Shown one piece after another: positions 1 to 38,200 of a stretch of 38,200 bases of DNA. Every line of letters begins with the position of its first letter. Position 1 is the stretch's first letter. Below the pieces are notes generated by a model. It made no database searches. It was not told the DNA's origin and saw only the letters and a list, made by a program, of their open reading frames with translations. Source of the stretch: Escherichia phage sortregn. The DNA is taken from the sequence record MN850588.1; one strand, written 5' to 3'. A program made the translations under genes and the position numbers.

Positions 1-1029
1 AAAATATTCTTTGTAACGTTGTTGTAAGTAGGTCGGAGTAGTCAGCGCGATCTCCTCCTGACCGTTTGCGTAGGCGGGCCACACGTCCGAGTCGCGGCAG
101 TGTTTGAACACCTGGAGCGCGGTCTTGTACTGCAAGCGCCCGATCATGATTTGCTCCGGCGTTAATCGGTTCATGAGCGCCAGCCACGGCTCGTCTTTTT
201 CCTGAACGAGGAGTTTAGTCCCCGCCGGATCCTGGTTATAGGCCAGCTTGAAACAGTCATGTTGTAAAGCCATCTTGCACCAGTAGCCCAGATCGTGAGC
301 CAGACGACCGAAGCGCTCCGGCTCCGCGCTTTGCGTGGTCTTGTAGTCGATGATCTCGCCGATGTCCGTCACGCGGTCCAGGCGGACCTTAACCGGGACG
401 CCATCGATCACGCAGAACAGCGACAACTCCGGGACGCCCGTCTCAATGATCCGGCGGTAGTTATGATTGACCAGCAACACGTCGCGCATTGAGTGAACGC
501 GGTCCCAGTCCTTCGCCGGGACGATCTCGCGACCGTTCGCCTCTTTGACGGCTTGCGCCTCGATCTCGTGCCAGATATTAAGCGTCTCGCCCGGCATTTG
601 TACGGCGCGACACATAGCGATCAATTCTTCGGCGGTTTTGTTGGAGTAGCCCTTCTGACCGCGTTCCTTTAGCCAGCTTTGCATCTTCGCTACTGACGTG
701 ATCAACTCCGGGAAGTCCTCCGGGTTAGGCAGACGGAAAAACTCGCGCTCGAAGCGTTCCGGCTCAAGTAACATCGTGTGGGAAGTGGTCCCGAATGTGA
801 GCGGCTTCTGGGCGGAGTTTAGTTTTTTGTTGGCGGCTTCCTGTGCTTTCTGGAAACGCCAGGCGGCGGGGCATTTGCTGTAAATGGTCCAGAGGCTCGA
901 CCCGGTAATGTAGATCTCGTCCTCGTGGTATTGCTCGTTTGTAAGCTGGTCGGCGCTCCGGGCGTCGATAAACATCGAAGCCGCGACGTCGTAGGACGGG
1001 AGCGCCGGGATCAATCCGTTCGTTTGCAT
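1..1029 (-). CDS. PD-(D/E)xK family exonuclease (RecB/YqaJ-like), truncated at window edge; start codon at 1029
   Basis: Own translation of minus strand from ATG 1027-1029, open to position 1 (not in ORF track because it has no stop in window); contains GEIIDYKTT motif typical of RecB-family nuclease motif III; downstream of helicase and VRR-NUC genes in same orientation. Confidence 0.55.
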   Translation of the reverse strand, partial: MQTNGLIPALPSYDVAASMFIDARSADQLTNEQYHEDEIYITGSSLWTIYSKCPAAWRFQKAQEAANKKLNSAQKPLTFGTTSHTMLLEPERFEREFFRLPNPEDFPELITSVAKMQSWLKERGQKGYSNKTAEELIAMCRAVQMPGETLNIWHEIEAQAVKEANGREIVPAKDWDRVHSMRDVLLVNHNYRRIIETGVPELSLFCVIDGVPVKVRLDRVTDIGEIIDYKTTQSAEPERFGRLAHDLGYWCKMALQHDCFKLAYNQDPAGTKLLVQEKDEPWLALMNRLTPEQIMIGRLQYKTALQVFKHCRDSDVWPAYANGQEEIALTTPTYLQQRYKEYF

Positions 1030-1068
1030 TGTTGGGACCTCTCACTGGTGAATGTGAGAGGCATTAAA

Positions 1069-1536
1069 TCATTCTTTCGTGATGTTTGCAACTGGTAAAT
1101 TGAGATAATACTCCAGCGCCGCCAGGCCAGCCTCCGCACCCCATGCGACAGCAGTCCAGCCACCACGCGCCCGCGCTCGTTCGAGGACGGTCTTTTGTTC
1201 CGGCTTTAACCGGGACTTTCCGCGATTGTTCCGCTTCAACTCGATCAGCGCGAAGCCATAGCCGCCGCGAGGCTCCAGGAAAACCCAGTCAGAGATCCCG
1301 GCGAGGCGTCCGAGCGCGTTTAACTTCGCCCCGTACCGGGGATCGCTGGAGCCGCCGCTCTCGTTTACTGGGTGGAACGCCAGAAGCGCGTCGGGATCAG
1401 TGTGGGGATCGCCGTAAATCTCCCGGATGTTACTCGCCATGTTTTGCTGTTCGACGTCCTCGTGTGGCGAGTAGGTCGGAATGTGGTCCAGGTAGAACTC
1501 GCGCCAGAACTCAGTCTTTTTGTTTAATACAGGCAT
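1069..1536 (-). CDS. VRR-NUC domain nuclease
   Basis: ORF 1069..1551, start moved to internal ATG 1536 preceded by GAGGG; GYGFALIELKR and KPEQK motifs resemble VRR-NUC; directly abuts helicase stop. Confidence 0.55.
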   Translation of the reverse strand: MPVLNKKTEFWREFYLDHIPTYSPHEDVEQQNMASNIREIYGDPHTDPDALLAFHPVNESGGSSDPRYGAKLNALGRLAGISDWVFLEPRGGYGFALIELKRNNRGKSRLKPEQKTVLERARARGGWTAVAWGAEAGLAALEYYLNLPVANITKE

Positions 1537-1537
1537 G

Positions 1538-3580
1538 TTAAAAACCCTCATTCATGAATACTTTGTTAGTGATAACGTCTTTACCCTTGCCGATCTTCCG
1601 GTGGGTAACTTTCAGTGGGGCCATGAAGTACGGCGCGAAGGCGAGGACCTCCTGGGGCGTCCGTAGCTTCTTGATGTCGGCCCGTTTCTTTCCGTCCAGT
1701 ACGTGCTTAAGGATCCCATTGTGGAGCCATTCCTTTTTCGCCTGTGGGCTATCGCTACCGGGCCAGAATACTTGCCACGCCACGAACTGATCGCCGTCCT
1801 TCTCCAACTCGTACCGGAAGGCGATCCCCCCAGTCCCTCGCGCCAATTCCAGACGGAAGCCCCTCACGTTGTAGTAGTCGTCCCTGCTGTACGTGGTCCG
1901 GCTTAAGTTCTTGTTCGGATCTACGAGCGAGTTCCCGCAGCAGCGGCAGATCCTGGCTACGATGTCGTTTTGTGCGCCGCATCCCTTCTGTACCACCTTC
2001 CGCCCGCTGGAGTCCTTCCAGTCGTCGCAGGTGATGAACTGGAAAAAGTGTTCGCAGCGTTCGCCAGTGTCGGGATCGACGTAGCGGCAGCGTCGGGCGT
2101 GTTTGCCGTTTAGCGTCGGGTGGCCCGCCTTGCGACACTTCGGACAGTCTAACTCTAATTCTCCTTTGCTCTCGTCTGCGCTGTGCTGGTATGCCTCCAG
2201 CAGCGGGGAGAAATACAGGGATCCGAGTTCGTCAAGCGTCCCGGCATAGTCGAGGACCAGGTGATCCTCCTTCGTCACCCCGGCGGCGATGTGGAACGGC
2301 TTAAGGATGCGCATACCACGGCCTAAAAGCTGGGTTAGGAGCGTGAGGGATCCGATCTTCCGCAGTATCACGGACGTGTCCCAGAACGGGACGTTAACGC
2401 CAGTCGTTAGGGCGTTAACCTGGAATATAAATTTGATCTCCCCGGTATTGGCGCGGCGCAAAATGTCCATGCGCTTCTTGCCCGTCGTGTCGTCCGTGAT
2501 GATGGCGTAAGGCGTACCAGGGGGAAGGGCCTCCGCCGCCTGTTTGCAGTGTCTCACGCCCGCACACGTCACTAACACGCCGTTCCTGTGCTGGGCGATG
2601 GCGTATACCTCCGCCATGATCTCATGCGTGAGCTTTTTGTCCTTAAGGATCGCCTTTTGCATGGCGTCCATTTCGGCGTCCGTGAACTCCTTAATGCCAT
2701 CCTCGCCGGACGATCGCCACTGGTCGAGGTTGTAGTGGAGATTGGAGATCCCGAAGTGAGTCGGAACAACCGCGCCGACGCTTACCAGGTATTCCGTCGA
2801 GATCTCGCATACCTTCTTACGCCAAAATCCGGGCTGTTCGAGGTCTGGCTGGATGATGGACTCCACGCCACGGTATGGCGTCCCGGTGTAGCCAATAATG
2901 CGGAGTTCCTTCCCGTAGACCTCGCGGGCGCGTTGCTGGAATGTGCGGATAATGATCGTATAGCTGGAGCGACCCGCCTCGATCATCTCCTCGTAAGTCT
3001 CGCCCTTGTGCTCGCCGATAATGGTCGGCTCGTCGAAGCCGTCCAGGATGATCTCCCCGGTTTTCTCGTCCCGCAGGTACTCCGGGACCACGCGCTCCTG
3101 TGAGCGGATCAGGTCCTCAATGTTGACGTGATGGCATTCATCGATCAGCAGGAACAGCGGCGCGTAATGGGCGAGTGCCTGACCTGGGCGGAGTCCTCCG
3201 ATCACTGTACCCTCGGAGCCGACCACGATCGGGAAGTGTGCAGACTTGCGGCCCAGGCTGGCGCAGTAGATCGAGGAGTTCACGCCGAAGTTTTTCAACT
3301 CCTCGAAGTCCTGATCGATGATCTCCCCCTGGCGGGACAGGATCATGGCAGGGAAACCCATATCCCTGATCCGGCGGGCCAGCATGGAGATCATGATGGT
3401 TTTACCCGCACTCACGGCGGCGTCCACAATGACCGGGCCAGGATAGCGACGGATGGCCTCCGCGCAAGCCTCATACGCGACGAACTGGTGATCGTATGGT
3501 GTAACGGGCATATCTCCCAGGGCGCGGAGAATCGCGTCCCGGTCGAGCGCTTCGATCTGTTTCTCCAATGTCATTAACAT
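1538..3580 (-). CDS. SF2 DEAH-box DNA helicase with C-terminal zinc-ribbon region
   Basis: 680 aa ORF; Walker A AAVSAGKT, motif II LLIDECHH, motif III YTGTP, motif VI QLLGRGMR; cysteine clusters CPKCRK, CRCCG. Confidence 0.8.
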   Translation of the reverse strand: MLMTLEKQIEALDRDAILRALGDMPVTPYDHQFVAYEACAEAIRRYPGPVIVDAAVSAGKTIMISMLARRIRDMGFPAMILSRQGEIIDQDFEELKNFGVNSSIYCASLGRKSAHFPIVVGSEGTVIGGLRPGQALAHYAPLFLLIDECHHVNIEDLIRSQERVVPEYLRDEKTGEIILDGFDEPTIIGEHKGETYEEMIEAGRSSYTIIIRTFQQRAREVYGKELRIIGYTGTPYRGVESIIQPDLEQPGFWRKKVCEISTEYLVSVGAVVPTHFGISNLHYNLDQWRSSGEDGIKEFTDAEMDAMQKAILKDKKLTHEIMAEVYAIAQHRNGVLVTCAGVRHCKQAAEALPPGTPYAIITDDTTGKKRMDILRRANTGEIKFIFQVNALTTGVNVPFWDTSVILRKIGSLTLLTQLLGRGMRILKPFHIAAGVTKEDHLVLDYAGTLDELGSLYFSPLLEAYQHSADESKGELELDCPKCRKAGHPTLNGKHARRCRYVDPDTGERCEHFFQFITCDDWKDSSGRKVVQKGCGAQNDIVARICRCCGNSLVDPNKNLSRTTYSRDDYYNVRGFRLELARGTGGIAFRYELEKDGDQFVAWQVFWPGSDSPQAKKEWLHNGILKHVLDGKKRADIKKLRTPQEVLAFAPYFMAPLKVTHRKIGKGKDVITNKVFMNEGF
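1823..1833 (-). repeat. CTGGGGGGATC 11-mer copy (sense strand of helicase gene)
   Basis: Exact match read on minus strand; frame-checked against helicase residues T583-G-G-I586. Confidence 0.85.
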
Positions 3581-3645
3581 TGTTTATCCCTTGTAATATC
3601 ACTAAAGCATGATTTATAGTAACCGGGAAATAACCGGAGGGCAAT
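3581..3645. promoter_or_regulatory. divergent promoter region between helicase and primase operons
   Basis: 65-bp AT-rich intergenic region between divergent genes; tandem GTAACCGG / ATAACCGG repeats just upstream of the primase SD. Confidence 0.4.
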
Positions 3646-4464
3646 ATGGCGATCTACAAAAAAGAGGACGTTCTCGCGGCGATGCCCGGCAAATGGGAAC
3701 AGGCGCTCCTCGATCTTTGTGGCTGGGACCGCAAGGCGTTTAACGGCAATCATCAACCTTGCCCGATCTGTGGCGGGACGGACCGCTTTCGCTGGGGCCA
3801 TAAGCAACAGACGAAGAAGGCGGAGGGCTTCGGCTACTGTTCCGGCTCCTGTGGCGGCGCTCGTGATGGCATGTTTTGGTTCATGACCAGCCGATCGCAG
3901 CCGTTCAACGAGGCGATCAACGACCTGGGCGACTGGATAGGCGGACTCACCCCGGAGAAGCGGGAAACCATCGTCAAGGAGGCGCGGAAGTATGCCCGCC
4001 AGCAGGATAAGCCCGCGCAGGACTGGGAACTCACCCCGGAGGACGTGGACAAGATCATGAGCAAAGGCACGATGCGCGACGGATTCCTGTATGTTCCATG
4101 CGCTCGTCCACTGGGGGGATCCCTGGGGCCGTGGTGCAACGTGGCGAAGATCGGCTCCGACAGGTCCGTGGTGTTTGCCGCTGGTGGCCCGACGTGGGGC
4201 GCGGTAGGTCTGATCCACCCAGTGCCAGACGCTCCGGTGTATCTGGTGGCGGATCCGGTCCATGCGGTGAACGTGGCGGCGCGAGGGGAGGCGGAGGTCT
4301 GGCTTACGTTCCGGCCTATGAACGCGGTCCAGGCGTCGGCGATATATGACGGCGATCGGGAGATCCGGTTCGTCTACACTGACCCGGACGAGGTTTTCCT
4401 GTACGGCTACGAGAGGACGGGGAGGCCATGCGTCGGCGGGCATCTTGCCGGGGCGTTCGGGTAA
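3646..4464 (+). CDS. DNA primase (zinc-ribbon plus TOPRIM-like region)
   Basis: HQPCPICGGTDRFRW and GYCSGSCGG match the primase zinc-binding ribbon of P4-alpha-like primases; later DGD acidic motif; GGAGGG SD upstream. Confidence 0.65.
   Translation: MAIYKKEDVLAAMPGKWEQALLDLCGWDRKAFNGNHQPCPICGGTDRFRWGHKQQTKKAEGFGYCSGSCGGARDGMFWFMTSRSQPFNEAINDLGDWIGGLTPEKRETIVKEARKYARQQDKPAQDWELTPEDVDKIMSKGTMRDGFLYVPCARPLGGSLGPWCNVAKIGSDRSVVFAAGGPTWGAVGLIHPVPDAPVYLVADPVHAVNVAARGEAEVWLTFRPMNAVQASAIYDGDREIRFVYTDPDEVFLYGYERTGRPCVGGHLAGAFG
4111..4121 (+). repeat. CTGGGGGGATC 11-mer copy
   Basis: Exact match; frame-checked against primase residues L156-G-G-S159. Confidence 0.85.
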
Positions 4465-4489
4465 AAAAAAAGGCCCCGCACGAGGGGCC
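4463..4489 (-). terminator. intrinsic terminator oriented for leftward transcription
   Basis: GGCCCC-GCACGA-GGGGCC hairpin 4472-4489 preceded on plus strand by A9, so U9 follows the hairpin on the minus transcript. Confidence 0.55.
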
Positions 4490-4542
4490 AGTGGGCGCGA
4501 CCGATACCAGCGGGCGCTAAAGCAATGGTGAACAGTCAACAA

Positions 4543-4564
4543 ATAGCACTTTTTGTTAAAACAC
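4543..4564 (+). promoter_or_regulatory. conserved promoter-like element copy 1 (ATAGCACTTTTTGTTAAAACAC)
   Basis: 22-mer shared with 6855-6876 (2 mismatches), each about 60-70 bp upstream of a rightward operon start. Confidence 0.35.
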
Positions 4565-4616
4565 AAAACAGTTAATCAATTATCGTTAGTCACCACCAAC
4601 CAAAGAAGGGCAGCAG

Positions 4617-5258
4617 ATGAAAGACGAGAAAGACACCACCACGATCGATCATGTGGACGGCATGACCGAGGCGGAACGCGCAGCGGCAGACGTGACCACT
4701 GTTAGCGGTCGCCGCTTCAACAAATCCAAGACGCCGGACGCTATCCGCCAGAAGTGGCAGACCCCGCGCTGGCTGTTCGACTGGGCCGTGAAGCGCTTCG
4801 GGCAATTCGGGATCGATGTGGCAGCAGAAAAGGCTAACGCCCTTTGTGATGTCTACCTGGACGAGAAAACGGACGCCCTCAAGGATGGCGTGGAGTGGGG
4901 AGCCGAGGGCGGGCTGGCGTGGTGTAACCCGCCATACGCGGAGCCGCTTCCGTGGATCGTGAAGGCCATCCAGCAAGCGAAGGATCGCGACGTTACGACC
5001 GTGTTTCTCCTGAACTCCGACGCGTCTACGGCGTGGTTTAAGAAGGCGCTGGACGCCGGGAGCCTGGTTATCCATATCACCAGCGACGGCGAGAACTCCG
5101 GGCGCGTGGCGTTCGTGAAGGCCGGGACCGAAGTCGCGGGCAAGAAGAACAGCAAGCCGTCCGTAATGTTCGTTATCAAGCCGAAGAAGCGCGGACCGAT
5201 CAAGACTGAATATCTGACCCAGGCGGAGATGATGTTCGAAGGCAAAACGATGATTTAA
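4617..5258 (+). CDS. DNA N6-adenine methyltransferase (phage Dam-like)
   Basis: 213 aa; WQTPRWLFDW N-terminal motif and NPPY catalytic motif (WCNPPYAEP) typical of the phage N6A methylase family. Confidence 0.8.
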   Translation: MKDEKDTTTIDHVDGMTEAERAAADVTTVSGRRFNKSKTPDAIRQKWQTPRWLFDWAVKRFGQFGIDVAAEKANALCDVYLDEKTDALKDGVEWGAEGGLAWCNPPYAEPLPWIVKAIQQAKDRDVTTVFLLNSDASTAWFKKALDAGSLVIHITSDGENSGRVAFVKAGTEVAGKKNSKPSVMFVIKPKKRGPIKTEYLTQAEMMFEGKTMI

Positions 5259-5274: not shown

Positions 5275-5856
5275 ATGATTATTTATGCACCAGTAAGCGC
5301 CTTACGCGCTCACCAACTGACCAAAGGCCAGCAGGACGTCCGCTATTACCTGAACGCGATCCACTTCATCGGCAACCGGATCCGCACGTCTAACGGTCAT
5401 GTTTGCATGGAAAGCACCCATAAGCTCGTCAACGCGCCGGAGGAGGGGATCATCCTCTCAATCTCCACGCCACCGACTGGGCGGATCTTCTCCGCCGTGA
5501 TCGACACGGACGCCGGGATCGTGTACTGGCTGGACATTCCGGCAGATAAGCCGAAGGACCTCGAAGAAGTGGACCACAAAAAGGCCCGCGTCGCTGTGGG
5601 GACCGTGGACATTGTGGAGGCCAATTATCCGAACGTGGACGCACTCCTGAACAAGGCCCGCGAGAACTCGAAGGCCGTCCACGAGATCGGCGTGGCGACG
5701 CCTTACCTCGGAATGATCGAGAAGCTGGCGAAGAAGTTCGGGATCAAGATGCCTTTTGCGAAACTGAACTTTAACGGCGCAGCGGAGCCGATCCGCGTGA
5801 ACCTGACCACGCCGGACGGCGAGGCCACCCTGATCATTATGCCCGCGAGAGTGTAA
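5275..5856 (+). CDS. hypothetical protein
   Basis: 193 aa ORF in Dam operon, no recognised motif. Confidence 0.5.
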   Translation: MIIYAPVSALRAHQLTKGQQDVRYYLNAIHFIGNRIRTSNGHVCMESTHKLVNAPEEGIILSISTPPTGRIFSAVIDTDAGIVYWLDIPADKPKDLEEVDHKKARVAVGTVDIVEANYPNVDALLNKARENSKAVHEIGVATPYLGMIEKLAKKFGIKMPFAKLNFNGAAEPIRVNLTTPDGEATLIIMPARV

Positions 5857-11766: not shown

Positions 11767-12420
11767 TTAGCAATTCGTGCTATTCGGATAAAGATACTCG
11801 CTCAACCGGGCCACCAGCGGCTCGTCTGGACCGAACTCAAACAGCCCGCCGTCGTTCTTGATCGAGTGGTGGATCTCCGCCAGTAACGTCTCCGCCCGCT
11901 GGAGCCTGGACGCCGCCGCGTTATCATGCCCGATCAGCTTCGTGATCTCCTCCTCCAGATCAGCGCCGAGCGCCGACGTCGCCCAGTGTTCGGCATACTC
12001 GCGATCCTTCAACAACCGGATCAGGGCCAACACGTCCGACTCGATACCGACAGTCGGGCCAGGCTGGAGCCGTGGCTGGATCTCGTCGAGCGTCTGCTGG
12101 GTAGCGTTCAACGTCCGGCGGATCTTGTCCTGTTCGGCCTTGCTCAGGTCCAGGATCAGCGGCGAAGCCGGGAGGCCATTTAACCAGGCGATCAGGTCGT
12201 CGTAAGGCATGACGGAATAAGCCTTCTCCGACGCGTACCCGGTGATCCGCCAGTCAGTGGTCGAACTGTACGCCTCGGAAATATCATCCTCCCGCAATTC
12301 GCGATAGACGATCTCAGCGCGACCGTTGTCGATCTTGCTCAGGCTCTCGATCAGCGTCTCCGGGATGTGGATCACTTCTTCGCCATTCTTAACGGCGGTT
12401 ACTGCGACATATCTGATCAT
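11767..12420 (-). CDS. hypothetical protein
   Basis: ORF 11767..12447 with start moved to ATG 12420 (GAGGAAAGAGAG upstream, ATGA overlap with upstream gene). Confidence 0.5.
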   Translation of the reverse strand: MIRYVAVTAVKNGEEVIHIPETLIESLSKIDNGRAEIVYRELREDDISEAYSSTTDWRITGYASEKAYSVMPYDDLIAWLNGLPASPLILDLSKAEQDKIRRTLNATQQTLDEIQPRLQPGPTVGIESDVLALIRLLKDREYAEHWATSALGADLEEEITKLIGHDNAAASRLQRAETLLAEIHHSIKNDGGLFEFGPDEPLVARLSEYLYPNSTNC

Positions 12421-12851
12421 CTCTCTTTCCTCATGGCTTGTTTGCATTGTAAAGCGGCGAGGGCCATCTCCGGGCCAATCTCGACGCCTGGGGGGAACCC
12501 TGTTTCCGTGGTCGCCAGCTTCGAACGATCCACCTTAAGGTCCCGTAATTGTCCGGCCCGTTCCATTTGTCCGGCGTGTCGGCAGAGATCCAGCAGCTTC
12601 TTACGATCGACGCCGGGGCAGTCCCAGAACGCCGCGAATATTTGCTCCGATGGTCGCAGGGCGCAAAAAGCATTGCGCGTTTCAACCGTCGGCAGATAAG
12701 GATCCATTCTCCCCTGTTCTATCGCCTCAATGATCGAGGGATCGGTGGAGCGGATCTTCTCCAGAATCTCCAGGCGGCGCTCCATTGCCGTCTTGCGTTT
12801 AACCGTGGCCCGAAGTGGGGCGGCAGGTTTTGAATCATCAAACAGTGACAT
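12417..12851 (-). CDS. hypothetical protein, first gene of leftward operon
   Basis: ORF 12417..12977 with start moved to ATG 12851 after GGAGGG. Confidence 0.5.
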   Translation of the reverse strand: MSLFDDSKPAAPLRATVKRKTAMERRLEILEKIRSTDPSIIEAIEQGRMDPYLPTVETRNAFCALRPSEQIFAAFWDCPGVDRKKLLDLCRHAGQMERAGQLRDLKVDRSKLATTETGFPPGVEIGPEMALAALQCKQAMRKER

Positions 12852-12991
12852 ATTGCCCTCCGTTGTGTGGAAATCAATATTACATAACGTTACCATGATG
12901 TAAAGCCCAACCGTGATAATAATTGACTTTACAGTGGTAACAAGGGCGGGTAACATTGCGACCAGTAACGCAACCATGAGGTGATTAAACA
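12852..12991. promoter_or_regulatory. divergent promoter/operator region with GGTAAC repeats
   Basis: 140-bp intergenic region between divergent operons; GGTAAC at 12936-41 and 12949-54, AGTAAC at 12964-69, GTTACC at 12888-93; sigma70-like hexamers TTGACT 12923-28 and GATAAT 12914-19. Confidence 0.45.
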
Positions 12992-14656
12992 GTGATTGAC
13001 TACGACGACGACAACCAGCCAGATCGCAGCGAGCAGGAGATCAGGGAGATGATCCGCCCAGAGCCGACGCCTCTCGAACCCGTCCCGGACTGGATGGGCC
13101 AGACCCCGGAGCCGACGGACGAGGAGGTGGCCCGGCAGATGGCGATCGAGGCTGAACGCGAAGCGGCAGAGCTGGAGTATTACCGATTCAACGACGACAA
13201 CCCGGACGATCACGCCTACGAGGTCGCGGTGAAGGATAACGAGGTGACGCTGGTCAAGCGCTCCGAAATGACCGAGGAGGAGCGGGCGGAGGCTTACCTG
13301 GCGAAGCAGCGCGAGAAGGACCGCAAGGCGATCGCCGACCTGCTGGCAGACGAGCCGGACCCCCTGCTGGAGGAACTGAACAAGGGCAACGAGATCAAGC
13401 CCGTTAATTACGTGATCCAGAACCTGATCCCGGAGCGCTCCGTGGGCTTCCTGGTCGGCGAGTCCGGCGCTAAGAAAACCTTTGCGGCCCTCCATATGGC
13501 CCTGTGCGTGGCGCGTGGCGTTCACTTCGGCGGCTTGCCAGTACGACAGGGATCCGTGATGTACTTCGCGCCGGAGGATGCGAACGGCGTCCGTGAGCGT
13601 TACGCGGGCTGGAAGTACACTCAGAACAAGAACGAGAACTTGCCTAATTTTTGGGTACTGGGCCAACAGGTCCCACTCCACCGCGAGGATCTTCTCCGCA
13701 AGTTCGGCGCGAGGATCAAGGACTCCGCATTTTTCCAGGCGAACCCCCTCTCCCTGATCGTGATCGATACCTACAGCGCCAACTCCGCCGGGCAGAAGGT
13801 CGGACAGACGCCAGTCAAGAAGGACGGGAAGATCGCGGAATGGGTAGGCGGGCGCGACTTCGACGAGAACGACAATAACGTGGCGGCGATCCTCATGAAG
13901 AACGCGGCAGACCTGGCGGACATGCTGGAGTGTGCCGTGATGATCATCCACCACACCGGGAAGGACACGGAGCGCGGCGGGCGCGGCGCGTCGGCTCTCA
14001 AGGCTAACGCAGGTTTTGAGGTCCTCGTGAAGAAATGCGCGAAGGACCGGGAGCTTTTCATCATTGAGCACTCGAAGGCGAAAGGCTGTGCGCTGTTACC
14101 GCCGCGAGCCATGCGCACGAAGGCGGCGAAACTCCCGCCGGACCTGGTGAAGATGAAGCGCGACGCGCTGGCCCGCATGACCGGACTCGACAACGAGGCG
14201 AAGAACAACCCGGCAGCGTGGGAGATCGGCGACAACCTGGGGACGCTGGTCGTCGTGAACAAGGTCGAGCCAGTCCCGACCGATAAGGCCGAGGAGAAGG
14301 ACGCGGGCGAGGAGAAAGGTCGCACCAAGCAGGAGGAACACGCGCTCCAGCTTTTGGCCTACGTGGTCGAGTACAACCACGATCGCGCCAGCAAGAACTA
14401 CAGGACGCCGAAACTCACAAAGGCGGCGCTCCGTGAGTGGGCGAAGAACTTCGCGGACCCGTCGCTGGATAAGCATCAATTCGCCCGCGCGTTCAAGTAC
14501 GCCACCGAAAAAGCGATGGTGATCAAAATGGCCGGGGATCAGACGCTAACCGCATCAACGGAAGCGCCCGCACTCCTGGGAGGGATCCGCGAACAGCAGC
14601 CACGATCCACGGACTGGAAACCAACCTCCGGCGGAGGTGATCTTGATGACTTTTGA
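12992..14656 (+). CDS. RecA-like replicative ATPase/helicase (AAA_25-type, RepA/DnaB-like)
   Basis: 554 aa; Walker A GESGAKKT, Walker B IVIDTYS, IIHHTGK motif; GTG start with GAGGTGA SD. Confidence 0.65.
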   Translation: MIDYDDDNQPDRSEQEIREMIRPEPTPLEPVPDWMGQTPEPTDEEVARQMAIEAEREAAELEYYRFNDDNPDDHAYEVAVKDNEVTLVKRSEMTEEERAEAYLAKQREKDRKAIADLLADEPDPLLEELNKGNEIKPVNYVIQNLIPERSVGFLVGESGAKKTFAALHMALCVARGVHFGGLPVRQGSVMYFAPEDANGVRERYAGWKYTQNKNENLPNFWVLGQQVPLHREDLLRKFGARIKDSAFFQANPLSLIVIDTYSANSAGQKVGQTPVKKDGKIAEWVGGRDFDENDNNVAAILMKNAADLADMLECAVMIIHHTGKDTERGGRGASALKANAGFEVLVKKCAKDRELFIIEHSKAKGCALLPPRAMRTKAAKLPPDLVKMKRDALARMTGLDNEAKNNPAAWEIGDNLGTLVVVNKVEPVPTDKAEEKDAGEEKGRTKQEEHALQLLAYVVEYNHDRASKNYRTPKLTKAALREWAKNFADPSLDKHQFARAFKYATEKAMVIKMAGDQTLTASTEAPALLGGIREQQPRSTDWKPTSGGGDLDDF

Positions 14657-16630: not shown

Positions 16631-17185
16631 ATGGCAAACGAACAGAACCTTAAGAAGGGGAACCGCTTCTCCAAAGAGAACCAGCCGGAGCGACGCGGCA
16701 GGGCGAAGCAGAACCGGACGTTACTCCTCGAAGCACTCCGCAAGGTTCGGATCAAGGAGGCCACCGGGCGCAAGGTCGAGGACATCGATCCAAACACTGG
16801 CGAGGTGAAGGTGAACAGCGAAACGGGCGAGCCGATCATGGTGGACGAGTTCGTGGAGGTCCCGCTCACGGAGGACATGTTCATCCAGCGAGCGATCCAG
16901 ATGGCCCTCGTAGACGGTTCCATGATGCGCGACATCATGAGCCGATTAATCCCCTACACCAAGCCGACCAGCCCGACCTATTGCTTTGAACTGACCGGAT
17001 CCACCCCGTCCGAGCGTATCACCGAGATCGAGGACCTGGTGGCAGCGGGAGAGCTTCCGTTCGACGCGGCGGAGTCTATGGTGAAGATGATCCGCCACGG
17101 CGCGGAAGTGTTCGAAATGTCCGAAATGGTCAAACGACTGGACGCACTGGAGGCCCGACTGAATGGCGAAGCCAAAGACGAATAA
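16631..17185 (+). CDS. terminase small subunit (P22 gp3-like)
   Basis: N-terminal KKGNRF motif as in P22 gp3; GGAGGA SD; upstream of TerL. Confidence 0.55.
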   Translation: MANEQNLKKGNRFSKENQPERRGRAKQNRTLLLEALRKVRIKEATGRKVEDIDPNTGEVKVNSETGEPIMVDEFVEVPLTEDMFIQRAIQMALVDGSMMRDIMSRLIPYTKPTSPTYCFELTGSTPSERITEIEDLVAAGELPFDAAESMVKMIRHGAEVFEMSEMVKRLDALEARLNGEAKDE

Positions 17186-17597
17186 ACTCCCGCCGGACAC
17201 TTACGGCAGACTGGAGGCGCTGGGCCTGAAATGGTTCACCGCCTCCCCTTACCCTTATTTCATCGTGTGCTTTGACCCGCAGGACGAGGAGATGGTGGCG
17301 AAGCTGGGCGAATGCTTCCCGGACTGGAACCGCGAGAAGCCGATCCAGCAAGGCGTCGCCATTGAGTACCACGCCGCCGACGTTAAGCTGGTGTTCGTAG
17401 GCGTCCGCCGGGGCCAATACTGGCGGACGACCATCGTCCACGAGATCGTCCACGTTAAGAACTACATCGGCGACACGCTGGGGATCGAGTGGGACGTGAA
17501 CAACGACGAGCCGGAGGCTTACTTCGTGGGCTGGCTGTTTAACATGATGGAGCAAACCTTCCAGGATCTGGGCTATGGCAAAAAATCGAAAGGATAA
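17163..17597 (+). CDS. hypothetical protein with HExxH motif (possible zincin-like)
   Basis: 144 aa ORF between TerS and TerL; HEIVH followed by acidic EPEAYF. Confidence 0.45.
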   Translation: MAKPKTNKLPPDTYGRLEALGLKWFTASPYPYFIVCFDPQDEEMVAKLGECFPDWNREKPIQQGVAIEYHAADVKLVFVGVRRGQYWRTTIVHEIVHVKNYIGDTLGIEWDVNNDEPEAYFVGWLFNMMEQTFQDLGYGKKSKG

Positions 17598-36451: not shown

Positions 36452-36892
36452 TTATTCTGGGTTAAGCCCTTCACCGTTAACCAGATGCCACTCTTTATGA
36501 TGCTTCTCGCAGAGCCAGCGCACATCTAACGGGCGATCGTAGTCGTCATGATGTCCCACTACCTTCTCCGCCCCGCAGACCTCACACGGCCCCCTGTGGA
36601 GTTCTCCAGTCTTTAGCGCGTAATAGACCATGCTATGAGCGCGGCGCTTCTTTGGATGCCTGGCATGATAGGCTGATTTTGTAGCGTTCGATCGCTCCCG
36701 GCCTTCTCCATGCTGATATTTTTTAGCGTGACAGATGATCCTCTCTTTTCTTTCTGGATCGCTGTGGTAATAACTCCGGTAATTCTTGTTCTTGCACTGG
36801 CGACAGCGTGGATCCCTTCCGTCCTTCCGGCGCTTGTCCTTGTGGAACTCCTCCGGCGGCTTTGATTCGTGGCAAATTGTGCATTGTTTCAT
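36452..36892 (-). CDS. HNH endonuclease
   Basis: 146 aa; CEVCGAEKVVGHHDDYDRPLDVRWLCEKHH HNH motif with flanking cysteines. Confidence 0.75.
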   Translation of the reverse strand: MKQCTICHESKPPEEFHKDKRRKDGRDPRCRQCKNKNYRSYYHSDPERKERIICHAKKYQHGEGRERSNATKSAYHARHPKKRRAHSMVYYALKTGELHRGPCEVCGAEKVVGHHDDYDRPLDVRWLCEKHHKEWHLVNGEGLNPE

Positions 36893-36935: not shown

Positions 36936-37481
36936 TTAAAACGGAATATCATCGTCGAAATCTTGAGGCGGCTCGTTAGACGCTCCAGAAGCGCCACCAC
37001 GAGGCGCAGACCCAGACCCGCTACCCTTGCCAGGATTTTGCGAGTTCGTCGCGCCACGGCCCGGAGAATTGCGAGAATTGCCACCGCCGCCGGAGTGGGT
37101 AGGTCCACTCCCCCCAGACTGACCGCCTTCACGCTTCCCGCCTAACATTTGCATCGTGCCGCCGACGTTCACGACGACCTCCGTCGTGTACTTCTCGACG
37201 CCTTGCTGGTCCGTCCATTTGCGCGTCTGGAGCTTGCCTTCGATGTAGACCTGGGACCCCTTGCGGAGATACTCTCCGGCGACCTCCGCCAGCTTGCCCC
37301 ACAAAACGACGCGATGCCATTCCGTGATCTCCTTCATCTCGCCCGTTTGCTTATCGCGCCAGGACTCGGAGGTGGCTACGGTGATATTTGCCACCGCGCC
37401 GCCGTTCGGCATGTATTTTACTTCGGGATCCTGGCCCAGATTGCCGACCAGAATCACCTTATTAACGCCGCGTGATGCCAT
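36936..37481 (-). CDS. ssb: single-stranded DNA-binding protein
   Basis: 181 aa; N-terminal OB-fold region near-identical to E. coli SSB as recalled ([21 protein letters not shown]...), Gly-rich linker, acidic tail DFDDDIPF. Confidence 0.9.
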
Positions 37482-37483
37482 GC

Positions 37484-38164
37484 TTAGAAGTCCTCAATAT
37501 TCGGTTTATCTTCCGCCGCTGGTGCTTCCTGCTGTGGCTCTACCGGGGCGGCGGGCTGTGCTTTCGCCGTGGCATTATCGGCGGTCTTTTTCTGCTTAAC
37601 AACCGAAGCCGGGTTAAACCCTTTCGACTCGCTGGCGCGGAGTGCCGCCTTGCGGGTAATGTGCCAATCGCGGACGACCTTCACGCTCGCCGAGTCGTCC
37701 GCCAGCATGTGGACCACTTTCCCCACGGCTTCGTCCAGTTTTTCCACGTCGTCGATCGATTCGAGATCCGCGATCCACTGGCGGGCGGTTTTCTTCGTCG
37801 CGTTGCCGTCGTCGTCTGCCTGGGTGATGCCGAACAGCGCCGCCAGGTGATAGCGTCGGGCATAGGTGATCGCCGAGCCGACAGAGTGAGCCGCCGCGCC
37901 CTTACCGAAGGAGAGAGGCATCTCCATAACCGCCGTCATGAACTCGCCGGACTCGTGGAGGACCATCGTCTCCAGCGGTAACACGAGCATGTTATTTTTT
38001 TCGGTGCAGGGCATAGGCGTTTGAACGACGATCAAGCCGTTCGACTCCAGCGCCGGGCGGATCGTGGCGATGAAGGATCCCAAGTCCGCATACCAGTTAT
38101 GCAGGTGATTATTTTCCGTGTTCTTTTTGGCCTCGGACATCATAGCGATGCGGGCCTTAACCAT
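37484..38164 (-). CDS. erf: ERF-family single-strand annealing protein
   Basis: 226 aa; [20 protein letters not shown] resembles conserved P22 Erf segment; adjacent to ssb; start codon choice uncertain. Confidence 0.7.
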
Positions 38165-38200
38165 TGCCGGGACAATCGCGGCGCGTGATTCAGAAAATAA

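Follow-up and report, generated by a model that had tools for sequence, protein, structure and literature searches.

The first 3,580 nucleotides (nt) of the 38,200-nt sequence of Escherichia phage sortregn (MN850588.1; the whole stretch is referred to here as the window) contain three open reading frames (ORFs) on the minus strand, encoding a superfamily 2 (SF2) ATPase, a VRR-NUC nuclease and a PD-(D/E)xK exonuclease. [quoted passage not shown] We propose, with a probability of roughly 0.6, that the operon supplies self-contained homologous recombination, used for recombination-dependent replication and for the debranching of concatemers before packaging.

An earlier note on this DNA, made from its letters alone, had placed an SF2 helicase at 1538–3580 with the two nucleases beside it and had read the group as a recombination-dependent replication or repair module. 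All three ORFs are present there, with homologies far beyond chance, and the single operon, the RadD-family affinity of the helicase and the resolvase-type subfamily of the VRR-NUC protein all support that reading. Pfam, PHROG and NCBIfam searches agree with the helicase, nuclease and exonuclease assignments, with VRR_NUC just under its Pfam gathering score and RadD below its equivalog cut-off. The finding itself is ordinary: public annotation already covers the genes, the order in which they lie and broad labels for them, the set is a standard T1-type recombination module, and the gain for genome annotation is small. What is added here is an explicit assignment of the helicase to the RadD family, a tally of the loci in which the helicase–nuclease pair occurs, and the correction of a RusA label on a neighbouring gene.

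Gene order and source of the operon

Over its first 8 kilobases (kb), the window shares 98.9% nucleotide identity with Salmonella phage Lumpael (NC_048113, Murrayvirus) and 78–92% with ST231, IME_EC2, sortsyn, Sortsne and related Klebsiella and Kosakonia phages. The phage genome is circularly permuted in the window: in Lumpael, 17 nt (CATGATCAAATCTCCTT) separate the window's end from its start. On the coding strand the Lumpael junction reads AAG GAG ATT TGA TC ATG, where AAG GAG ATT TGA are the final three codons and stop codon of the exonuclease gene and the ATG of Erf follows 2 nt later. The window edges cost the exonuclease its last three codons and stop codon and Erf its start codon; the exonuclease/Erf junction, reconstructed via Lumpael, is AAGGAGATTTGATCATG. 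Because the two window ends lie 17 nt apart in Lumpael, the Erf, SSB and HNH genes continue directly downstream of the exonuclease gene on the same strand. These three had been recorded at the far end of the stretch; the genes are indeed there (Pfam ERF and SSB; PHROG 2340 and an HH...H motif for HNH), but in Lumpael the apparent far end is only 17 nt away from the window start.

The helicase, VRR-NUC, exonuclease, Erf, SSB and HNH genes form one six-gene leftward operon, which diverges from a primase–Dam operon across a 65-nt spacer (3581–3645). Its features, with the evidence for each, are:

1538–3580, minus strand: predicted RadD-family SF2 ATPase, 680 amino acids (aa); RadD sequence, NCBIfam and fold matches
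1069–1536 (alternative ATG at 1551), minus strand: predicted VRR-NUC nuclease, 155 aa; Pfam, psNUC profile match and PHROG
1038–1061, minus strand: stem-loop between VRR-NUC and exonuclease; sequence, with a stem at the same place in relatives
1–1029, minus strand: predicted RecE/exonuclease VIII-like exonuclease, 343 codons in the window; DUF3799, PHROG 412 and 3h4r
37484–38200, start codon 3 nt past the window end, minus strand: Erf-family single-strand annealing protein; Pfam ERF and PHROG 155
36936–37481, minus strand: SSB, 181 aa; Pfam SSB
36452–36892, minus strand: HNH-type endonuclease, 146 aa, the last gene of the operon; PHROG 2340 and HH...H motif

The VRR-NUC ORF extends over 1069–1551 on the minus strand, and its likelier start is the ATG at 1536, so placed that the helicase/VRR-NUC junction reads TAACATG, with 1 nt between the helicase TAA and the start codon. 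Lumpael gp35–gp39 (relatives IME_EC2, Sortsne and ST231) share this gene order and are labelled in RefSeq as DEAD/DEAH box helicase, nuclease (VRR_NUC), exonuclease VIII (DUF3799), Erf-like annealing protein and SSB; no annotation covers the HNH gene that follows SSB, the stretch up to the next gene being left empty.

The window is collinear with Lumpael except for a 3.3-kb deletion (Lumpael 1932–5235, small hypothetical genes). About 400 nt of the window (17175–17571) have no alignment to Lumpael.

The helicase is a RadD-family homologue

The helicase matches the Pfam families ResIII (31.2 bits) and Helicase_C (39.9 bits), with DEAD also matched, and carries motif I (GK60T), motif II (D147-E-C-H150) and motif VI (Q417xxGRGxR424). 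The earlier note had called it a DEAH SF2 protein; its membership of SF2 stands, but motif II reads DECH, not DEAH. Further along lie a double zinc ribbon of eight cysteines (479–548) and a beta-rich C-terminal domain. In an alignment of 31 phage and bacterial sequences, G59-K60, D147-E148-x-H150, R421 and R424 are invariant; T232, from the SF2 motif set, is invariant in a five-sequence alignment and nearly so in the 31.

Sequence and predicted fold both point to RadD. E. coli RadD (YejH) is the sole solved relative found by sequence in the PDB (5.2e-38), in an alignment that spans the zinc-ribbon region, and BLASTP against E. coli K-12 RadD gives 25% identity at 3e-44. The eight zinc-binding cysteines align with RadD C384, C387, C411, C425, C434, C437, C448 and C451 and are kept in 30–31 of the 31 sequences. 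The best NCBIfam model is heli_RadD_YejH, whose profile was reached to position 571 of 573, at a score of 192.2 bits, far short of the 720 bits set as the equivalog cut-off. From 31 homologues an AlphaFold2 model was built (predicted local distance difference test, pLDDT, 84.7) and searched with Foldseek: the top eight matches are all RadD chains (1.9e-34 to 2e-29, ~685 aligned columns), and a second tier of SauUSI, XPB and HsdR appears only near 1e-13, which puts the RadD structures about 20 orders of magnitude ahead of the restriction motors. We therefore class the helicase, by these matches, as a RadD-family homologue and not as an equivalog of E. coli RadD; it should carry the name RadD-like. 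Our literature search found no paper on 'RadD-like' phage proteins, RadD occurring only as an automated label.

With E. coli RadD (PDB 6JDE/7R7J), the phage protein shares two RecA-like domains, the eight-cysteine zinc ribbon, the C-terminal domain and the SF2 motifs; it differs in having ~20 more N-terminal residues and an insert of ~50–65 aa after motif II (residues ~157–222; 2915–3112 on the minus strand). Only the Murrayvirus and Drexlerviridae homologues have the insert; E. coli RadD lacks it, as do the homologues from Vibrio, Yersinia and environmental phages. It is modelled with low confidence, parts of it having a pLDDT below 50.

A contact with SSB is possible by analogy with the E. 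coli protein, in which the pocket for the SSB C-terminal tail is framed by Arg21, Arg49 and Arg145 (PMC10238739). In a pairwise alignment, R44, R72 and R227 of the phage helicase stand opposite these residues. The Arg21 equivalent is Arg or Lys in 26 of the 31 sequences and the Arg145 equivalent is Arg in 25, both being Arg in the window helicase. The C-terminus of the phage SSB, DFDDDIPF, is the same interaction tail that E. coli SSB presents to RadD. E. coli RadD accelerates RecA strand exchange (PMC8887467), partly replaces RecG (PMC8887467, PMC7470958) and has a DNA-independent ATPase that the SSB tail stimulates (PMC8887467, PMC10238739); within the RadD family, the strand-exchange and ATPase properties are known for the E. 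coli protein only.

The VRR-NUC nuclease groups with stand-alone junction resolvases

On its own the VRR-NUC protein scores 21.7 bits against Pfam VRR_NUC, slightly short of the gathering score of 23.8, while 13 of 19 family representatives match the model at E<=0.01 (best 1.5e-12). A profile of 19 diverse helicase-linked homologues matches psNUC (4qbl) at 6.6e-16 and stNUC (4qbn/4qbo) at 1e-3. The catalytic set consists of E26, D83, E99-x-K101 and Q114; E26, D83, K101 and Q114 are invariant among the 19 diverse members, and E99 is present in at least 90%. The same E-(P)D-ExK set, together with Gln, has been reported for psNUC (PMC4103454). The protein also matches PHROG 824 and PHROG 5702, the latter named 'Holliday junction resolvase'.

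As dimers, the stand-alone VRR-Nuc proteins psNUC, stNUC and saNUC make symmetric cuts in four-way junctions (Pennell et al., PMC4103454). The affinity of psNUC for four-way junctions is sub-nanomolar, replication-fork substrates are cut to an intermediate degree, and these relatives are structure-selective, leaving linear duplex DNA uncut (PMC4103454). The phage protein shares with them (4QBL, 4QBN, 4QBO) a single domain of ~90–145 aa and the E-(P)D-ExK motif with its conserved Gln. Its beta1–beta2 linker is about as long as that of psNUC, with no long FAN1-type insertion in the alignment; it differs in having ~25 extra N-terminal residues and 'SD' in place of 'PD' at the catalytic Asp. These features assign the VRR-NUC protein, as a prediction, to the psNUC-type subfamily of stand-alone Holliday-junction resolvases.

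A profile search returned 1,079 VRR-NUC homologues. The best 120 of these are all stand-alone proteins of 125–180 aa, none being fused to a helicase.

A RecE-like exonuclease coupled to Erf and SSB

The exonuclease matches DUF3799 at 68.2 bits (cut-off 26), PDDEXK_1 at 33.9 bits and PHROG 412, 'exonuclease VIII', at 6.8e-87; its match to the structure of the RecE catalytic domain (3h4r) is at 2e-3. Its motifs are GTTSH (80–84), RLD218RV and IID228-Y-K230. RLD218 and D228-Y-K230 fall opposite the RPD and D-V-K of RecE, and GTxxH is also in register. Against the full-length RecE equivalog the score is 39 bits, short of the 1269-bit cut-off. The enzyme had been described as a RecB-like PD-(D/E)xK exonuclease; the fold class holds, but the family matches indicate a RecE-like rather than, in the narrow sense, a RecB-like protein.

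Downstream, Erf matches Pfam ERF at 70.9 bits (cut-off 25) and PHROG 155, and SSB matches Pfam SSB at 139.5 bits. The last codons of the exonuclease gene, as read in Lumpael, supply the Erf Shine-Dalgarno sequence AAGGAG. The exonuclease, coupled to Erf and SSB, is a classical two-component recombinase. It shares with RecE/RecT, lambda Exo/Beta and P22 Erf a plan in which translational coupling links the gene for a 5'-3' exonuclease to that for an annealase, with SSB after them; the difference from RecE/RecT is that a RecE-type exonuclease is here joined to an Erf-type annealase, not to RecT. P22 Erf is not known to work with a dedicated exonuclease of its own.

A stem-loop precedes the exonuclease gene at 1038–1061 on the minus strand, with the structure CCTCTCAC-N8-GTGAGAGG. 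The Shine-Dalgarno sequence of the exonuclease gene, GAGG, lies in the 3' arm of the stem, 8 nt ahead of the ATG. Three Murrayvirus contigs (L006, L007 and L009) have a stem of other sequence at the same place, and a fourth (L008), in which the VRR-NUC and exonuclease genes overlap, has none. The stem-loop may regulate how the exonuclease is translated or mark a site of RNA processing.

In the product of the operon's last gene, a CxxC...CxxC ribbon lies at the N-terminus and a GHHDDY...CEKHHKEWH motif at the C-terminus. The protein matches PHROG 2340 at 1.7e-39 and, more weakly, 'endonuclease VII' and HNH families of PHROG; no Pfam match above threshold and no PDB relative were found. The gene is kept after SSB in all four Murrayvirus contigs (L006–L009), and its product may be a homing or accessory nuclease. 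Its likeness to endonuclease VII-type resolvases is confined to the PHROG level, with no Pfam Endonuclease_7 match, and is not used in the argument.

The helicase–nuclease pair is conserved while its partners vary

A tblastn search with the helicase returned 1,913 phage records, mostly Drexlerviridae (T1-like phages). We compared 79 related loci, drawn from annotated phages and IMG/VR and spanning helicase identities of 24–96%; 75 of these, in which the sequence continues for 450 nt or more downstream of the helicase, were informative. A VRR-NUC homologue accompanies the helicase in 73 of the 75. It lies on the same strand and abuts or overlaps the helicase stop codon in 66 loci, most commonly with a 4-nt overlap. 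A search begun from the VRR-NUC profile agrees: all three distant environmental contigs examined have an SF2 helicase just upstream of VRR-NUC, and these helicases match E. coli RadD at 1e-92 to 1e-105. The two genes adjoin directly in two of the three contigs; a homing-endonuclease gene lies between them in the third.

The pairing thus recurs, as the earlier note had said. Its further remark that the role of the pair is unclear was half true. A passage in PMC9635880, citing Iyer 2006, describes the VRR-Nuc–helicase linkage for T1 and a T1p21 VRR-Nuc subfamily; depositors have labelled the helicase 'radD' or 'Holliday junction branch migration helicase'; and TLS gp59 has been called a 'Holiday junction recombinase' (PMC11447400). 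The helicase has also been reported as a core gene of Tunavirinae (PMC12845203).

Neighbourhood comparison in related phages shows recombination genes alongside the conserved pair, and the identity of these genes changes from group to group. In the window and in Drexlerviridae the partners are a RecE-like exonuclease, Erf and SSB; in a Yersinia phage they are Bet and an exonuclease; and in the environmental contigs they are AAA_24 (Sak4-type), YqaJ and PrimPol. Since the pair stays fixed while its recombinase partners vary, association argues strongly for a role in recombination. A paper on Sak and Sak4 (PMC5499656) contains nothing on VRR-NUC.

Drexlerviridae offer the closest comparison outside the Murrayvirus group. 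Along its whole length their helicase shows 44–49% identity, the VRR-NUC gene overlaps its stop codon, and the primase gene is divergent; the exonuclease VIII, Erf and SSB families are common to both, and Dam too is part of the T1-like set. The arrangement differs in that the Drexlerviridae exonuclease–Erf–SSB block is a separate unit, across the primase or elsewhere, whereas here all six genes lie in one operon. Drexlerviridae also lack an AAA_25 helicase, of which the window phage has one.

In some distant phages (L085/L086, L066, L068 and L074), the helicase/VRR-NUC junction is split by ~0.5 kb. The intervening gene in L085/L086 (5282–6004) bears a NUMOD3 homing-endonuclease motif, which suggests that the junction is a target for the insertion of mobile endonucleases.

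A proposed recombination role for the operon

We infer the biochemical activities, the helicase–nuclease and helicase–SSB contacts and the role in packaging as follows. The RecE-like exonuclease would resect DNA ends 5'->3'. SSB would cover the exposed 3' strand, and Erf would anneal it to a complementary strand or to a replication fork, thereby priming recombination-dependent replication and building concatemers. The RadD-like motor, recruited and perhaps activated via the SSB tail DFDDDIPF, would drive strand exchange or branch migration at three- and four-way joints. A VRR-NUC dimer, translationally coupled to the motor, would cut the junctions, so that a headful terminase could package the concatemer.

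A more specific version of this scheme, which we put forward tentatively and hold to be less likely than not, is that the RadD-like ATPase and VRR-NUC are physically associated and tethered to SSB as a branch-migration and resolution machine. It would be a third bacterial or phage solution beside RuvAB–RuvC and RecG–RusA. These two systems, T4 UvsW–endonuclease VII and archaeal XPB–Bax1 follow the same plan of a DNA motor and a structure-specific nuclease acting on branched DNA, and XPB is among the second-tier fold matches of the helicase. The likeness is one of functional analogy, with no specific sequence kinship beyond distant SF2 membership.

On this view cellular RadD, which is still enigmatic, would have four-way or three-strand junctions as its natural substrate. 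The E. coli radD gene lacks a neighbouring nuclease, whereas the phage copies nearly always have one. That phage RadD homologues, some matching E. coli RadD at 1e-100, are nearly always accompanied by a resolvase-type partner points to a junction substrate. The near-obligate pairing across distant phages is evidence, of a comparative kind, for RadD-family action on branched intermediates of recombination, and the phage proteins would make the idea easy to test. Our literature search found no relevant paper joining RadD and VRR-NUC.

Several observations weigh against a recombination role. No experiment has been reported on any phage member of the helicase/VRR-NUC pair. The 79 loci are dominated by close Drexlerviridae kin, the VRR-NUC proteins falling into 18 clusters at 70% identity. 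The function of the helicase may have diverged from that of RadD, given both its distance from the equivalog cut-off and its clade-specific insert. In the proposed SSB pocket, the Arg49 equivalent aligns only pairwise, and in the 31-sequence alignment the position belongs to a variable loop. By itself, E. coli RadD shows no detectable helicase activity, and it stimulates strand exchange in a strictly RecA-dependent manner (PMC8887467); since the phage has Erf and not a RecA-like recombinase, the motor would need host RecA or another mode of action. Two further points concern replication. In 63 of the 79 loci a homologous primase is found no more than 5 kb from the helicase, a linkage almost as tight as that to recombinases and one that fits a role in the replisome. 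T1 and TLS encode neither another helicase nor a DNA polymerase, and the authors who described this take the helicase to start replication (PMC11447400).

These last points underlie the best-surviving alternative, in which the RadD-like protein is a replication-fork or initiation helicase that forms a primosome with the zinc-ribbon primase, while VRR-NUC trims stalled or regressed forks. The divergent position of the primase gene next to the helicase gene and the intermediate cutting of fork substrates by psNUC (PMC4103454) agree with such a division of labour. We consider it plausible but unlikely here: the separate RecA-fold AAA_25 protein (DnaB/RepA-like, 12992–14656) is the likelier replicative helicase, RadD shows no independent unwinding (PMC8887467), and in distant phages the pair stands beside Sak4 and YqaJ, or Bet and an exonuclease, with priming left to an unrelated PrimPol.

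We give far less weight to the view that the two nucleases chiefly degrade host DNA for nucleotides, with the helicase feeding them substrate. Host-genome degradation in T1-like phages is listed as an open question (PMC11447400) and the operon contains three nucleases, but the relatives of VRR-NUC spare linear duplex DNA (PMC4103454) and the translational coupling of the exonuclease to an annealase is the signature of a two-component recombinase; this role is very improbable.

Least credible of all is a phage-borne exclusion, defence or counter-defence system directed against competing phages or host immunity, which the earlier note had raised by pointing to helicase–nuclease defence systems: that resemblance is superficial (SauUSI, HsdR and XPB–Bax1 among the Foldseek matches at ~1e-13, behind RadD by the margin given above), PADLOC, run on the three proteins together with the primase and the AAA_25 protein, gave nothing specific (for the helicase only generic Helicase_C-region matches of 68–93 residues at 8e-7 to 6e-4, for both nucleases none), the genes sit inside a core replication and recombination operon with a helicase that is a Tunavirinae core gene, and our literature search found no paper tying the VRR-NUC and helicase pair to defence, only unrelated mentions.

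Neighbouring genes

Three genes outside the operon bear on its setting:

3646–4464, plus strand: zinc-ribbon (T7 gp4-type) DNA primase; Pfam Zn_Ribbon_Prim 28.7 bits and PHROG 510
5275–5856, plus strand: protein labelled 'RusA-like', 193 aa, beta-clamp-like; profile and fold matches to DnaN
12992–14656, plus strand: AAA_25 protein, 554 aa; Pfam and PHROG 2850

Pfam confirms the zinc-ribbon primase and the AAA_25 protein, both of which the earlier note had listed.

RefSeq (Lumpael gp32) and PHROG 3007 give the gene at 5275–5856, within the primase/Dam operon, the label 'RusA-like Holliday junction resolvase'. We reject this identity: searches of Pfam, NCBIfam and PDB sequences gave no match to RusA. 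The family profile points to the beta clamp DnaN (5e-6), and among PDB structures the 50 best Foldseek matches of an AlphaFold2 model (pLDDT 82) are all DnaN beta clamps. The 193-aa product has about half the length of the matched 366-aa DnaN. The 'RusA-like' label is probably a propagated mis-annotation. With it set aside, VRR-NUC is the sole resolvase-type candidate among the genes examined, in which no other junction resolvase was identified, and so the candidate enzyme for debranching.

In the primase/helicase spacer there is a sigma-70-like promoter match (3591–3620, plus strand). Just past the primase gene lies a strong terminator-like hairpin (GGCCCCTCGTGCGGGGCC then T9) at 4472–4489; being on the minus strand, it would halt leftward transcription from the Dam side and not transcription of the primase gene. 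Promoter and terminator scans of 1–4700 were at or below shuffle expectation and are not used as evidence.

The best match of the AAA_25 protein is PHROG 2850, a family of unknown function (1e-125), and primase-helicase families are matched weakly. For the two divergent genes beside it (11767–12977, minus strand; 226 and 186 aa) Pfam gave no match. Homologues of the AAA_25 gene lie directly upstream of the RadD-like helicase gene in a Yersinia phage (L004) and in one contig (L069).

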